Source: an uncultured virus (IMG/VR IMGVR_UViG_3300021599_001487) (lineage: Duplodnaviria; Heunggongvirae; Uroviricota; Caudoviricetes). Taken from it: a stretch of DNA of 20,000 nt. The stretch lies in IMG/VR virus record IMGVR_UViG_3300021599_001487, one strand, 5' to 3'. Below the pieces are notes generated by a model. It saw nothing but the letters and a program-made list of their open reading frames with translations, did no database searches and had not been told where the DNA came from. This document shows, piece after piece, positions 1 through 5,497 of the stretch; position 1 is the first letter of the stretch, and every line of letters begins with the position of its first letter. The position numbers and the translations under genes are program-made.

Positions 1-88
1 TGGCGTTGGCTAGCGCGCGTACGGTGCAGTCGTTGCGCTCGCGCTCGGACGATTGGCCGCTGCATGCGGGCAGGATGTAGTGAATCAT
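1..88 (-). CDS. 5' part of a small phage protein (MIHYILPACSGQSSERERNDCTVRALANA...), runs off the window
   Basis: ATG at 88-86 follows the repeated ACAACAGGAG RBS leader and the frame is open to base 1. The NDCTVRALA motif resembles a common phage hypothetical family (recalled, not searched). Confidence 0.75.
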   Translation of the reverse strand, partial: MIHYILPACSGQSSERERNDCTVRALANA

Positions 89-103
89 GGTGTGCTCCTG
101 TTG

Positions 104-150
104 TGAAAGTGTACTGGCCGGGGAATTGAACCCCGGCCGCTGCACTCTCA
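104..150 (-). ncRNA. Intergenic internal-loop hairpin, copy A1 (possible RNA processing site)
   Basis: Minus strand UGAGAGUG-CAGC-GGCCGGGG-UUCAAUU-CCCCGGCC-AGUA-CACUUUCA. It lies between a stop codon and the next RBS and is repeated at 546-589. Confidence 0.65.
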
Positions 151-354
151 TGCCTCCCGGCGGGATAGCATAATGTCGCGAATGCTTTCGCGATCGACTG
201 AGTCGCCGCACCACTCCAGGCTTGCGTCGGGGCGGGACGTCAGCTTGATGGCGATTGCCTCGAGTATTTCCTGTCTTGTGGCGCTCAAGTCGTACAGGCC
301 CCCGGGCCCGTAGAACTCCAGCACGTAATCTACAAATTGCAGTGTGTCCGGCAT
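148..354 (-). CDS. Hypothetical phage protein, 68 aa
   Basis: ORF with the AGGAG RBS leader. FVDYVLEFYGPGGLY and GDSVDRE motifs look protein-like. Confidence 0.8.
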   Translation of the reverse strand: MPDTLQFVDYVLEFYGPGGLYDLSATRQEILEAIAIKLTSRPDASLEWCGDSVDRESIRDIMLSRREA

Positions 355-379
355 GGTGTTGCTCCTGTTGTGGTTGGTG

Positions 380-406
380 TCTTACTGGTTTTTCGTGGGT
401 ACTTTT
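380..406 (-). repeat. 27-bp exact direct repeat, copy C1 (putative early promoter)
   Basis: tcttactggtttttcgtgggtactttt is identical to 1954-1980. Both copies lie just upstream of an RBS leader. Confidence 0.7.
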
Positions 407-528
407 ACCTGCCAAACGAAAAACGTGCCACAAAAAACTAGGCGCGCGTACTCGATCGCCTCTCGTTTGGTCCTAAACTTTGGGCCTGTCGTTGTCTTGG
501 TGTTGGTCCCTGCCAGCCAGTATGCCAT
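382..528 (-). CDS. Hypothetical protein, 48 aa (MAYWLAGTNT...)
   Basis: ATG at 528 lies downstream of ACAACAGGAG. The ORF-track start at 585 falls inside the hairpin repeat. Confidence 0.6.
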   Translation of the reverse strand: MAYWLAGTNTKTTTGPKFRTKREAIEYARLVFCGTFFVWQVKVPTKNQ

Positions 529-545
529 GGTGATTCTCCTGTTGT

Positions 546-589
546 GAAAGTGTACTGGACAGCCCCGTAGGGCTGGCCGCTGCACTCTC
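546..589 (-). ncRNA. Intergenic internal-loop hairpin, copy A2
   Basis: GAGAGUG-CAGC-GGCCAGCCC-UACG-GGGCUGUCC-AGUA-CACUUUC. The base and internal loop match A1, but the apical stem differs and is capped by a C(UACG)G tetraloop. Confidence 0.65.
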
Positions 590-591
590 GA

Positions 592-1199
592 TTACGCCAC
601 GAGTTTGATCGGGATCACGCGATCGACGACGAAGCCCGAGACGTCGCGCTTGGCCTTGCCCTTGGCGTAGAGGGCCACGACGACTCCCTGCGGGTGTGCC
701 ACGGTCACGGAATACCACGGCCACGCGCATGCCGGCGCTGATGGCGCGCTTCGCGTACTCCGGGAAGGCACCGACGCCGGACCACGAGAACGTCAGGTCA
801 TAATTGGCCGGGATGTCGCGGCGGTTGGCGATCTTGGTGTAGTCGTAGAACTGCACGCCGGGGAAGCGATCAAAAATGGTGCGCCCGTCGTCTGTCTTGA
901 TCGTCTCCCAGCGGATGTCTGTCGTGCCGTTCAGGCGCACGAGCGGGGTCATGCCCTTGCGTTTGGCGCTGCGGACCAGCCGCTCGATGTCGGCCACGAG
1001 CACGCGCATGAACGCGGCGCGCTGCTCGATAAAAAACCGGGCCTTGGACAGTCGTGCGCGCTGGACGTTGGACATGGCGCCACGGCCGGCGCTGTTCAGG
1101 CAGGCCGCCTTGCACCCGGCCATGTCGGCCATGGGGCAGAGGTTGACGCCGGAGAGGTCCGCCGGGGCCATGTACAGAATGCCTGTCATGAACCCGTAT
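592..1199 (-). pseudogene. Gp88-family phage protein (Cys-cluster), apparently disrupted: start lost and frameshift near 694-700
   Basis: The main frame carries ILYMAP...NLCPMA...GCKAACL...GRG, VRLNGTTDIRWE, QFYDYTK, NYDLTFS and VAVVF. The family-like C-terminus PQGVVVALYAKGKAKRDVSGFVVD..* is in another frame, ending at TAA 594-592. An out-of-frame ATA sits where the other cassettes have ATG. Confidence 0.7.
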
Positions 1200-1221: not shown

Positions 1222-1273
1222 GCATCAGACCATCTCGCGATGGTTTCGGCCAATCAGGCCTCGTCAGTGATGC
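1222..1273 (-). ncRNA. Type I hammerhead ribozyme, copy 1
   Basis: GCAUCA-CUGACGA-GGCC(UGAUU)GGCC-GAAA-CCAUC(GCGA)GAUGG-UC^UGAUGC. The CUGANGA/GAAA core is complete, all three stems pair, and the GUC cleavage site is at 1228|1227. Confidence 0.95.
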
Positions 1274-2905: not shown

Positions 2906-3130
2906 ATGAAACGAAAAAACCCAGACACCGGCGACGTGTTCCACCGGGGCGATACGCGCCTGGATGGGTACGTGTTCTTCGCCTACACCAAGAGGCGGAG
3001 ATCGGACGGACACTTCGTCGAGATATGGCTGCACCCCCTGGCATCGGAGAGGGCCACCGTAAACGACCGGCAAAGAAAGCGGCAAAAGGCACATGGCGAT
3101 ACCGTCAGACACGCCACTACCGACGCCTAG
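2906..3130 (+). CDS. Small basic hypothetical protein, 74 aa (MKRKNPDTGDVFHRGD...), possibly nucleic-acid binding
   Basis: ATG at 2906 follows the late motif. The protein is Arg/Lys-rich and overlaps the next gene. Confidence 0.6.
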   Translation: MKRKNPDTGDVFHRGDTRLDGYVFFAYTKRRRSDGHFVEIWLHPLASERATVNDRQRKRQKAHGDTVRHATTDA

Positions 3131-4067
3131 CGGGTGGGTGCTGGCCTCAGACCTTCGACCTGGAGACGTCCTGTTCAACCCCCGCGGCGGTACCCAGGCC
3201 GTTGGCTCTGTCCAGAGCTACATACCAACCGAGTGCTACCGGGTGCACATGTCGGACGGTACCAGCATCGTCGGCGACCGACACGCGGGCATGATGCTGC
3301 AGGACCAGCGGTGGCGCGAGAGGCAGCAGTCCTGGTTCAACAACCAGGGCAACAAGTTTGCACAGAAAAGATTTCGCCGCCCGCTAAAGAGGCAGACCTT
3401 CCTGGATCTTTACAAGGGACCGCTTTTGGACGCGAGGGGCCGCAAGAACTGGTCCCTGCAGGCCGTGAGCCCCCTGCAGTACCCGCAGGTCGACCTGCCG
3501 GTGCCTCCATACGTCGTGGGCCTGTGGCTGGCGACGGTCACCCCAACCAACCGCCACTGGCTACTGAACCGAGACTACAACCAGATGCAGAGACGGGTGC
3601 GAGAGGTGGGGTTCAGCCTGGCAAGAAAGAAGAAGGGCAAGTGGATGTTCTCCTTTAGGCCCGGCGTAAGGGAGTCGTTTATACACTCCGGGGCCCCGGT
3701 GCCGGACGTGATACCGCAATCATACCTTGAGAGCGACGTAGACAGCCGACAGGCGCTGCTGGACGGGCTATTTGACGCAAAAAGCATCAAAAAAGCGGAA
3801 AGCTCACGCGATGGTCTGGTGATACACGACAACTGGCGCTCAATACGGCGCAAGCAGCAGCTCCTGGAGGGCCTTGGGTACGTCACGAGGCTGCTACAGA
3901 ACGGAAAGAACACCTTTTTCTCGCTCTACTTTACGAAAATGTATGACAATGTCGCTAAGTGCAGACGTTTTGTTACAAAAGTTGAAAAAATTGTCCCAAA
4001 ACAGTGCGTACACATCGCCACAGACGGGGAGTTTGTCGCGGGAGAGGGATTTTTAGGTATATGCTGA
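3093..4067 (+). CDS. Free-standing degenerate intein-like (Hint plus LAGLIDADG-like) protein
   Basis: Intein block A/B-like AIPSDTPLPTPSGW...GD...YRVHMSDGTSIVGDRH. Endonuclease-like PYVVGLWL and IPQSYL...RQALLDGLFD. Block F-like FVTKVEKI...CVHI...FVAGEGF. There is no terminal His-Asn and there are no exteins. Confidence 0.8.
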   Translation: MAIPSDTPLPTPSGWVLASDLRPGDVLFNPRGGTQAVGSVQSYIPTECYRVHMSDGTSIVGDRHAGMMLQDQRWRERQQSWFNNQGNKFAQKRFRRPLKRQTFLDLYKGPLLDARGRKNWSLQAVSPLQYPQVDLPVPPYVVGLWLATVTPTNRHWLLNRDYNQMQRRVREVGFSLARKKKGKWMFSFRPGVRESFIHSGAPVPDVIPQSYLESDVDSRQALLDGLFDAKSIKKAESSRDGLVIHDNWRSIRRKQQLLEGLGYVTRLLQNGKNTFFSLYFTKMYDNVAKCRRFVTKVEKIVPKQCVHIATDGEFVAGEGFLGIC

Positions 4068-5497
4068 CCAAAAAACAGGAAACGGTACTCGCAAACTTCG
4101 CAAAAAACAACAAGCACTGGCCAAAGGCGCAGCTAGAGGCCGCGCTGTGGCAGGTCAGGTGGGAGCTGGAGGCGTTGGCGCACCAACGAGAGCCAGAGGA
4201 CGGCGAGTACGACACGTTTCTGATGCTGGCAGGGCGAGGGTCGGGCAAGACGCACACCGCGAGCCACTGGATTGGGATACGGGCATGGAAATACGCCGGC
4301 ACGAGGTGGCTCGTCACGGCACCGACGTCGAACGACATACGCGCGACGTGCTTTGAGGGTGACTCGGGCCTGATGAACATCATACCGTCTTCGCTGATAC
4401 AGGACTACAACAAATCGCTCTTTGAGATCACGCTAACCAACGGCTCGATCATACAGGGCATACCCGGCTCAGAGCCAGAGCGCTACCGGGGCAAGCAGTA
4501 CCACGGGGCCTGGTTCGACGAGCTGTGCGCGTTTGAGTACATCGACGACGCATACGACCAGGTACAGTTCACGCTGCGACTGAGGCACCCAGACATCGCG
4601 CGGGTGCAGCAGATCATCACCACCACCCCAAAACCTAAAGAGCTCATCGTAGACCTCAACGATGGCAAGGTCGGCGGGGACGTGTACGTCGTAAACGCCA
4701 GCTCCTACGACAACCGACAAAACCTCTCGGCGACGTTTTTCAAGCAGCTCGAGACGTACGAGGGCACCGACCTCGGCAAGCAGGAGATCTACGGCGAGAT
4801 CCTGGACCCAGAAGATGCCGGTATCGTAAAACGGAAGTGGTTCAGGATGTGGCCCTCCAAGAAGGAGACGCCTACCCTGGAGTATGTCATCGCAAGCTAC
4901 GACCCGGCCACGAGCGAGAAGACGCACAACGACCCAACGGCCTGCACGGTGTGGGGCGTCTTCGAGCAACAGGACGCGGGCACGTCGCTCATACTGCTAG
5001 ACGCGTGGGACGGTCACCTGGCCTACCCAGAGCTGCGCAAAAAAGTAATCAACGACTTCAAGGAGGTGGTGTACGGGGCGGACAACACGTTTGCCAAGGG
5101 CAGGAAGGCCGACCTGATACTGATGGAGGACAAATCGGCCGGTATATCCCTGATACAAGAGCTTCAGATGGCCGGCGTCCCGGTCCGGGCCTACAACCCA
5201 GGCCGCGCGGACAAGGTACAGCGCGTCAACATCGTGGCGCCCCTGATCGCCAAGGGCAAGGTGTTTGTGCCGGAGGATGCCAAGAAGGACGGGGAGTACG
5301 CCGAGTGGACCAAGAGATTTATGCGCCAGGTCTGTGCCTTCCCGGAATCTGGCGGCCACGACGACTACGTCGACAGCCTGTCGCAGGCGCTGCGCGTACT
5401 GCGAGACTCTGGGTGGGTACAGCTAGACCCCCTGCCGCCGCGGGACTACTCCTACGCCGACGACAAAAAGACCCGAGCCAACCCATACGCGCAGTGA
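4061..5497 (+). CDS. terL: Terminase large subunit
   Basis: Walker A AGRGSGKT, Walker B AWFDE, coupling motif ITTTP, and nuclease motifs YDPA and HDDYVDSLSQA. The likely start is ATG 4061, overlapping the upstream stop. Confidence 0.95.
   Translation: MLTKKQETVLANFAKNNKHWPKAQLEAALWQVRWELEALAHQREPEDGEYDTFLMLAGRGSGKTHTASHWIGIRAWKYAGTRWLVTAPTSNDIRATCFEGDSGLMNIIPSSLIQDYNKSLFEITLTNGSIIQGIPGSEPERYRGKQYHGAWFDELCAFEYIDDAYDQVQFTLRLRHPDIARVQQIITTTPKPKELIVDLNDGKVGGDVYVVNASSYDNRQNLSATFFKQLETYEGTDLGKQEIYGEILDPEDAGIVKRKWFRMWPSKKETPTLEYVIASYDPATSEKTHNDPTACTVWGVFEQQDAGTSLILLDAWDGHLAYPELRKKVINDFKEVVYGADNTFAKGRKADLILMEDKSAGISLIQELQMAGVPVRAYNPGRADKVQRVNIVAPLIAKGKVFVPEDAKKDGEYAEWTKRFMRQVCAFPESGGHDDYVDSLSQALRVLRDSGWVQLDPLPPRDYSYADDKKTRANPYAQ

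Follow-up and report, generated by a model that had tools for sequence, protein, structure and literature searches.

The window (the whole stretch of DNA analysed here, 20,000 nucleotides from an uncultured virus) belongs to a tailed phage, with terminase, portal, GroES-like, and major capsid genes on the plus strand and a divergent block of short genes on the minus strand (1-1920). Its capsid protein is 65-67% identical to those of Caulobacter phages GB2A, RW, RLK, and KcrB and of a spring-water phage; by this protein, the Caulobacter phages, at 65%, are the closest cultured relatives. The minus-strand junctions are filled by a hammerhead, a promoter-like repeat, or a hairpin, and each filler is then followed by the same A/C-rich leader and a GGAG. 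The features of this block are listed below, C1 and C2 being the predicted cuts in the 5′ and 3′ arms of the hairpin.

86-103, minus strand: A/C-rich leader after hairpin copy 1, with GGAG at 98-95 and AUG at 88-86; predicted C2 cut to AUG, 27 nt
104-150, minus strand: hairpin copy 1, a predicted RNase III site (fold, RNase III pair scoring); lower stem 150-141/113-104, 2×2 loop 140-139/115-114, upper stem 138-131/123-116, apical loop of 7 nt; predicted first nucleotides after cutting, 136 (5′ arm, C1) and 115 (3′ arm, C2)
148-354, minus strand: early gene phrog_7799, 68 aa; its TGA stop supplies the first letters of copy 1
367-406, minus strand: putative promoter-like repeated intergenic element, the third kind of junction filler; second copy at 1941-1980
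526-544, minus strand: A/C-rich leader after hairpin copy 2, with GGAG at 539-536 and AUG at 528-526; predicted C2 cut to AUG, 28 nt
545-590, minus strand: hairpin copy 2, a predicted RNase III site (fold, RNase III pair scoring); 2×2 loop 580-579/556-555, upper stem of 9 bp including one C·U, UACG loop; predicted first nucleotides after cutting, 576 (C1) and 556 (C2)
592-1199, minus strand: early gene phrog_1617, upstream of copy 2; broken, with no start and with an internal gap and frameshift relative to near-identical contigs
1222-1273, minus strand: type I hammerhead with full core in the stop-to-RBS slot; predicted cut after 1228; RAGATH-1-hammerhead at 22.5 bits, below the gathering score
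1501-1552, minus strand: type I hammerhead with full core in the stop-to-RBS slot; predicted cut after 1507

The window is without three short segments (about 65, 57, and 97 nt; in 592-1199 and at about 1683) that are found in the otherwise 100% identical contigs L202 and L203; two of the three disrupt the phrog_1617 gene, as an assembly artefact or a defective variant. Parts of the region are carried by 4 metatranscriptome runs of one study as shallow contigs that may contain DNA. One shallow RNA contig stops inside copy 2 and is not counted as evidence of cutting; relative to the window, RNA contigs have extra letters at 695 and 1199. The promoter-like repeat has no sigma-70 consensus match, and the copy at 367-406 is not picked up by a sigma-70 scan, so that it is possibly activator-dependent or read by another polymerase; variants of it occur in related phages. 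Between the divergent early and packaging blocks lie AT-containing direct and inverted repeats (2220-2410 and 2550-2820), similar in the related contig L025, which are probably an origin or packaging-end region. At 3093-5497, similarity to the terminase large subunit is split over two overlapping ORFs (324 and 497 aa), and L025 has an apparent insertion in the same area; an intein, an intron, or a frameshift is possible.

The original prediction, made from the letters of this DNA, had proposed two matching hairpins that have no U tract and that occupy, between stop codon and RBS, the same slot as the hammerheads. All of this stood. The hairpins refold on the minus strand at 104-150 and 545-590 with energies of −29.0 and −24.6 kcal/mol, far better than shuffled sequences (z −7.39 and −4.14, with 0 of 200 shuffles equally good), and for neither copy is there an alternative two-state fold within 2.5 kcal/mol. 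Nothing terminator-like follows either copy. ORF 354-148 ends in the TGA within which copy 1 starts, and copy 2 starts right behind the TAA at 594-592; both end 6 nt ahead of a GGAG, and the two type I hammerheads sit in the same position. The finer anatomy had been drawn less accurately. An internal loop is present, but not with the 4×4 extent (CAGC/AGUA) given to it, as homologues resolve it to an invariant 2×2 loop (5′-GC/5′-AG) with a conserved A-U or U-A pair below it and, further down, one weak variable pair. The base stem is likewise present, but its top G-C pair is formed in just 6 of 16 sequences. There is no constraint on the apical loop, for which the 27 variants have 17 sequences, and the likeness of one copy to a tRNA T-loop, seen in 2 of them, is therefore incidental; ARAGORN, run for a tRNA or tRNA-like element, finds 0 tRNA genes.

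A search of viral and metagenome sequence for homologues, which the original prediction had named as one of its checks, turned the two copies into a family of 27 variants in 69 loci and 31 groups. Pattern scans gave 3 true hits out of 22, and further ones came from 62 viral and 60 metagenome stretches. An unbiased route via the upstream phrog_1617 protein (80 loci, the best 80 of 598) came upon the family twice, in L025 and in L081, which is divergent, and a pattern built on L081 then found a second subfamily, with 13 variants in 29 of 48 loci; the same upstream gene precedes the subfamily-2 hairpin in L081 and in four inspected loci. Covariation was looked for among these homologues and found: in 16 sequences, both partners have changed at 9 of 19 pairs, and in an alignment of both subfamilies (14 sequences) the figure is 11 of 19. 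The invariant core consists of the G·G/C·A 2×2 loop with its closing pairs, G-C on the upper side and A-U or U-A on the lower, between an upper stem of 8-9 bp and a lower stem of 10 bp; across both subfamilies, the four loop nucleotides and a few pairs are all that is invariant. Most search patterns fixed the 2×2 loop, and a separate scan was run with the loop left free. Among its 38 distinct matches, the 12 hairpins that fold at −23 kcal/mol or better all have the G·G/C·A loop, and two weaker folds (−21 and −20) have other loops, neither of them in the stop-to-RBS slot. The sense strand is the better folder in 21 of the 27 variants. Two sets of candidates were discarded: 31 pattern hits in cellular genomes were taken to be due to chance, none exceeding 33 bits and those inspected folding differently, and three repeats in L195 fit the descriptor but are unrelated (p 0.08-0.11) and were left out of the 27 variants. 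The latter are about 273 nt each, in tandem with an internal hairpin, at 1440-2150 of that 110-kb metagenome contig, and are a chance pattern match.

The original prediction would have been undercut by a match to a characterised family. Rfam, including the RAGATH motifs, was searched with the window, with a 91-nt stretch at E up to 10, and with 17 loci; no family reached the gathering score and the best hit, unrelated, had 18.2 bits, in a setting where sensitivity is limited, a real hammerhead reaching just 22.5 bits. In a blastn comparison of the early region with annotated phages, coding stretches and short pieces of the hammerhead region match and the hairpin does not; a locus search with the 68-aa protein found nothing. 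The family model has no copy in the examined stretches of the cultured Caulobacter-phage relatives, no hit in the nearest virus record (G001, 56% complete), and no sequence match to T7. A literature search found no published account of the motif, nor of an exchange between RNase III sites and hammerheads; the Weinberg motif papers of 2015 and 2017 and their supplements could hold one. This kind of element is known from T7, and the family is absent from Rfam.

The stem was scored against a matrix of pair counts from E. coli in vivo double-cleavage RNase III targets (Table S4 of PMC6212723, whose erratum, PMC6212792, touches Figure 2 only). The enzyme of the host may differ from that of E. coli: B. 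subtilis RNase III has the same preferences (PMC11780869), but the alphaproteobacterial enzyme of S. meliloti is reported to need longer substrates (PMC6121014). When the product score of the E. coli study was applied over ten registers, the best one placed the two pairs just above the 2×2 loop between the cuts in 25 of 27 variants; another register was favoured in 2 of the 27 and in 1 of 13 of subfamily 2. The window copies score −23.9 and −25.6 on this scale, beside published cut-offs of −25.5 and −33.8 (PMC6212723), and so fall in the range of true targets. These scores only approximate those of that paper, as our ladder runs gap-free through the loop; the matrix rows sum to 86, and the division was by 85. 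Log-odds on the stem positions give one best register in 27 of 27 variants (pair-order permutation p 0.0005-0.024) and the same register in 13 of 13 of subfamily 2 (p ≤ 0.005), although the variants are related, so that these p values are not independent and represent about two independent families and not 40 tests. Among controls, 400 of 2160 other hairpins with 2×2 loops, 8 reach p ≤ 0.025 and 4 reach 6.6 bits. A scan of both strands of the 20-kb window ranks the two copies first and second, at 25.5 and 22.1 bits. A control with T7 was less favourable: the gap-free whole-site scan missed all T7 sites, because their loops are asymmetric, and half-site scoring found 2 of 5, one with the GAU start that we take to be the expected one and one as a tie, with three not captured.

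The stem has 20-21 stacked positions, and its lower half gives 12 positions to the predicted C1 cut, long enough for a site whose helix must come to about 22 bp in total, with 11 bp or more on one side. The conserved E, D′, K′, and J′ pairs match the proximal and distal boxes as PMC1540722 defines them, one such set being, by its account, enough to specify a cut. Position E is G-C in 27 of 27 variants. At proximal position 2, all 27 variants have A-U or U-A at D′ and 23 have it at D, copy 1 having G-C at D; in subfamily 2, both are A-U or U-A in 13 of 13, with D′ flipped to U-A in a column constrained to A/U by the search pattern. The distal box has A-U at K′ in 27 of 27 and G·U at J′ in 26 of 27 (U-A at J′ in subfamily 2), in columns partly fixed by the search patterns, and is missing from the upper side, where the stem is too short for one. 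Half-site scores average 7.1 bits for the lower stem versus 1.2 for the upper, and run at 5.9-7.5 versus 2.9-3.6 bits in subfamily 2. At proximal positions 3 and 4, G·G (C′) and C·A (B′) stand in place of the A-U pairs that are optimal there (PMC1540722), and two adjacent mismatches in this box depart from the RNase III optimum; they are also the commonest mismatches at these positions in the E. coli targets (6 and 5 of 86 rows). The B position carries a weak C·U pair in 10 of 27 variants, as in the efficiently cut T7 site R1.1, and G-C or C-G in 12 of 27, which at B is described as a catalytic antideterminant that uncouples binding from cleavage (PMC1540722). The C1-C2 spacing is 18-21 nt across variants; double cuts spaced 17 and 18 nt exist in E. 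coli (PMC6212723). The two adjacent proximal mismatches and the missing upper distal box make the site a weaker substrate, as does, in 12 of 27 variants, the G-C or C-G pair at B.

RNase III sites between cistrons are textbook knowledge for T7. The T7 early mRNA signals (R0.3, R0.5, R1, R1.1, and R1.3) are, like the hairpin described here, intercistronic internal-loop hairpins placed just before an RBS in an early polycistron (PMC3867540), and they share its proximal box, with G-C at E, A-U at D, and often C·U at B. They differ in having an asymmetric 4/5 loop (PMC6121014), as against the symmetric 2×2 G·G/C·A, and in carrying the full proximal and distal set in the upper stem, not in the lower stem as here, where a cut in the 5′ arm would be favoured; moreover, unlike the T7 signals, the hairpin is interspersed and exchanged with hammerheads. 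With the E. coli double-cleavage targets (Altuvia et al. 2018, PMC6212723), it has in common the pair pattern over about 20 positions, A-U or U-A at D and D′, G-C at A′, G·G and C·A as tolerated mismatches at C′ and B′, and a short C1-C2 spacing. The E. coli targets have no common sequence, whereas the hairpin keeps the two mismatches jointly and recurs as a cassette.

At homologous gene junctions, hairpin and hammerhead replace one another, and the leaders behind them are equally long. The predicted C2 cut lies 27-34 nt from the AUG in 64 of 70 distinct contexts, and the hammerhead cut lies 25-34 nt from it in 34 of 36. Gene families that border the hairpin also border a hammerhead elsewhere in 2 of 18 cases upstream and 5 of 25 downstream, and what comes after the phrog_1617 gene is a hairpin in 4 contexts and a hammerhead in 4. 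Clustered intergenic hammerheads of phages and prophages occupy the same slot and have been given the same role, Perreault et al. (2011, PMC3088659) having proposed that they cut long transcripts to gene-length mRNAs. Unlike them, the hairpin contains no hammerhead core; its cutting is predicted to depend on a host enzyme and to yield 5′-P and not 5′-OH ends. These are the ends that RNase III and hammerheads, respectively, leave. Near relatives differ by gene blocks with repeats at their borders: L202 and L203 are without the gene between the two hammerheads, and L180 and L187 are without the two genes between the hairpins, the promoter-like repeat being placed directly against the hairpin. 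Such differences resemble the modular shuffling ascribed to the PeSL cassettes of T4-like phages, which are also repeated intergenic stem-loops in a variable early region and probable recombination points (PMC4122927). PeSLs are described there as promoter/terminator composites, whereas the hairpin has no U tract and stands apart from the promoter-like repeat in most copies. The hairpin repeats may double as recombination points for gene shuffling.

The original prediction had called the hairpin an RNA processing element and had offered an RNase III site, a protein-binding stabiliser, or a ribozyme-associated motif. The general claim is supported, and of the three options the RNase III site fits quantitatively and the other two gained no positive support. 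The conserved stem pairs fall at RNase III recognition positions. We favour this option and consider it probable that the hairpins are T7-type processing sites for host RNase III. Like the T7 R sites, they would punctuate a polycistronic early transcript: host RNase III would bind the stem of about 21 bp, with the two pairs directly over the G·G/C·A loop at its centre, and would then cut, so that the long message would be reduced to single-gene pieces, the same job as that of the hammerheads at neighbouring junctions. Counting against this reading, predicted cutting leaves access to the RBS unchanged (0.55, 0.56, and 0.57 unpaired). Which arm is cut is a separate question. In T7, the upper stem carries the optimised set and cutting takes place on the 3′ arm (see PMC8708148). 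Here it is the lower stem that carries everything needed for recognition: an A-U/G·U distal box, A-U or U-A as the second proximal pair, and a weak pair as the fourth. The 5′-arm cut is therefore favoured, and the site is probably a mirror-image variant of the T7 arrangement. Within the RNase III reading, a cut at C1 only falls somewhat short of an even chance, cleavage of both strands is quite possible, and a cut at C2 only is rather unlikely. After a C1 cut, the GC-rich upper stem, a hairpin of 6-7 bp, would start the next mRNA and shield its monophosphate end. A 5′ hairpin, or the 5′-OH end made by a hammerhead, may blunt RNase E attack. Attack by RNase E is faster on 5′-monophosphate ends (PMC3997798), and mismatches at a site can limit RNase III cutting to one strand (PMC3867540). 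It is conceivable, if doubtful, that evolution has made the fixed G·G/C·A tandem a device for choosing the strand, by which RNase III nicks the 5′ arm only and the hairpin caps each downstream mRNA.

What else might such a hairpin do? It could be bound and left uncut, as a protein-binding or stabilising element (including one that RNase III binds but does not cleave), holding back 3′ exonucleases or insulating the RBS that follows. The invariant G·G/C·A loop could then be a protein recognition site, the G-C or C-G pair that 12 of 27 variants have at B would uncouple binding from cleavage (PMC1540722), and what follows the subfamily-2 hairpin is a long conserved intergenic stretch and no RBS. 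However, an uncut stem leaves the swap with self-cleaving hammerheads and the matched cut-to-AUG distance unexplained, and 10 of 27 variants carry at B the weak C·U of the efficiently cut R1.1; we judge this role unlikely. The slot common to hammerhead and hairpin and their mutual exchange would also suit a new minimal, protein-free self-cleaving ribozyme that replaces hammerheads and has the G·G/C·A loop as its active site. The loop is invariant even when unfixed in the search (12 of 12 hairpins at −23 kcal/mol or better), and the twister-sister-like ("lantern") ribozymes, with a core of 31-35 nt, likewise consist of two stems around a conserved internal loop (PMC11620745). Their loops, however, have 5 + 6 nt with a conserved CA cut site (PMC11620745), unlike the 2×2 GC/AG loop with its other sequence; a ribozyme would have just four unpaired invariant nucleotides, no conserved tertiary partner, and a free apical loop, and the RNase III code accounts for the conserved stem pairs. 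Self-cleavage seems very improbable.

The enzyme might instead be encoded by the phage, as an endoribonuclease that recognises the loop, for the loop is strictly kept in phage-only sequences, none of the 31 cellular pattern hits exceeding 33 bits. Against this, early genes would presumably need processing before a phage enzyme exists, a search for an RNase III domain in 5 partial phage records (12-61% complete) found none, and the fit to the host code requires no second enzyme; we give this idea very little credence. Finally, the hairpin might be a terminator, or a PeSL-like repeat that shuffles genes at the DNA level and has no RNA function, as the gene blocks that differ between near relatives are bordered by these repeats and PeSL promoter/terminator cassettes shuffle genes in T4-like phages (PMC4122927). 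Yet a U tract is absent on both strands, the compensatory changes and the conserved G·U pair point to selection on RNA structure, and the sense strand folds better in 21 of 27 variants; recombination may be a side effect, and we find this the most far-fetched of the alternatives.

If processing by host RNase III is what the hairpins serve, then a single phage relies on two kinds of cut, one made by a host enzyme and one by the RNA itself, as equivalents at the same gene junctions and with leaders of equal length. This would be a natural control for the role of phage hammerheads, and would point to early-message segmentation over regulation or ligation. The family also predicts exactly where the cuts should fall and, as a compact natural substrate of RNase III in which a tandem mismatch is fixed, would help to show how mismatches select single- versus double-strand cleavage.

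Three other structured elements were seen in the related loci. At L018:2068-2185 (plus strand), a larger multibranch RNA of about 115 nt (−54.8 kcal/mol, with a long closing stem) occupies the same stop-to-RBS slot; it has no Rfam match and no further copy among the examined loci. In subfamily 2, the sequence that follows the hairpin is not an RBS and is a conserved, apparently structured intergenic stretch of about 300 nt (L081:5730-6010, and about 450-740 in gene orientation in L325, L335, L342, and L353). It has no Rfam match and could be a phage ncRNA, with a 5′ end possibly set free at the hairpin. In Mesorhizobium phage Lo5R7ANS, an unannotated hairpin (L023:1052-1110) scores 23.6 bits on the RNase III matrix and lies just before the RBS of the first early gene.
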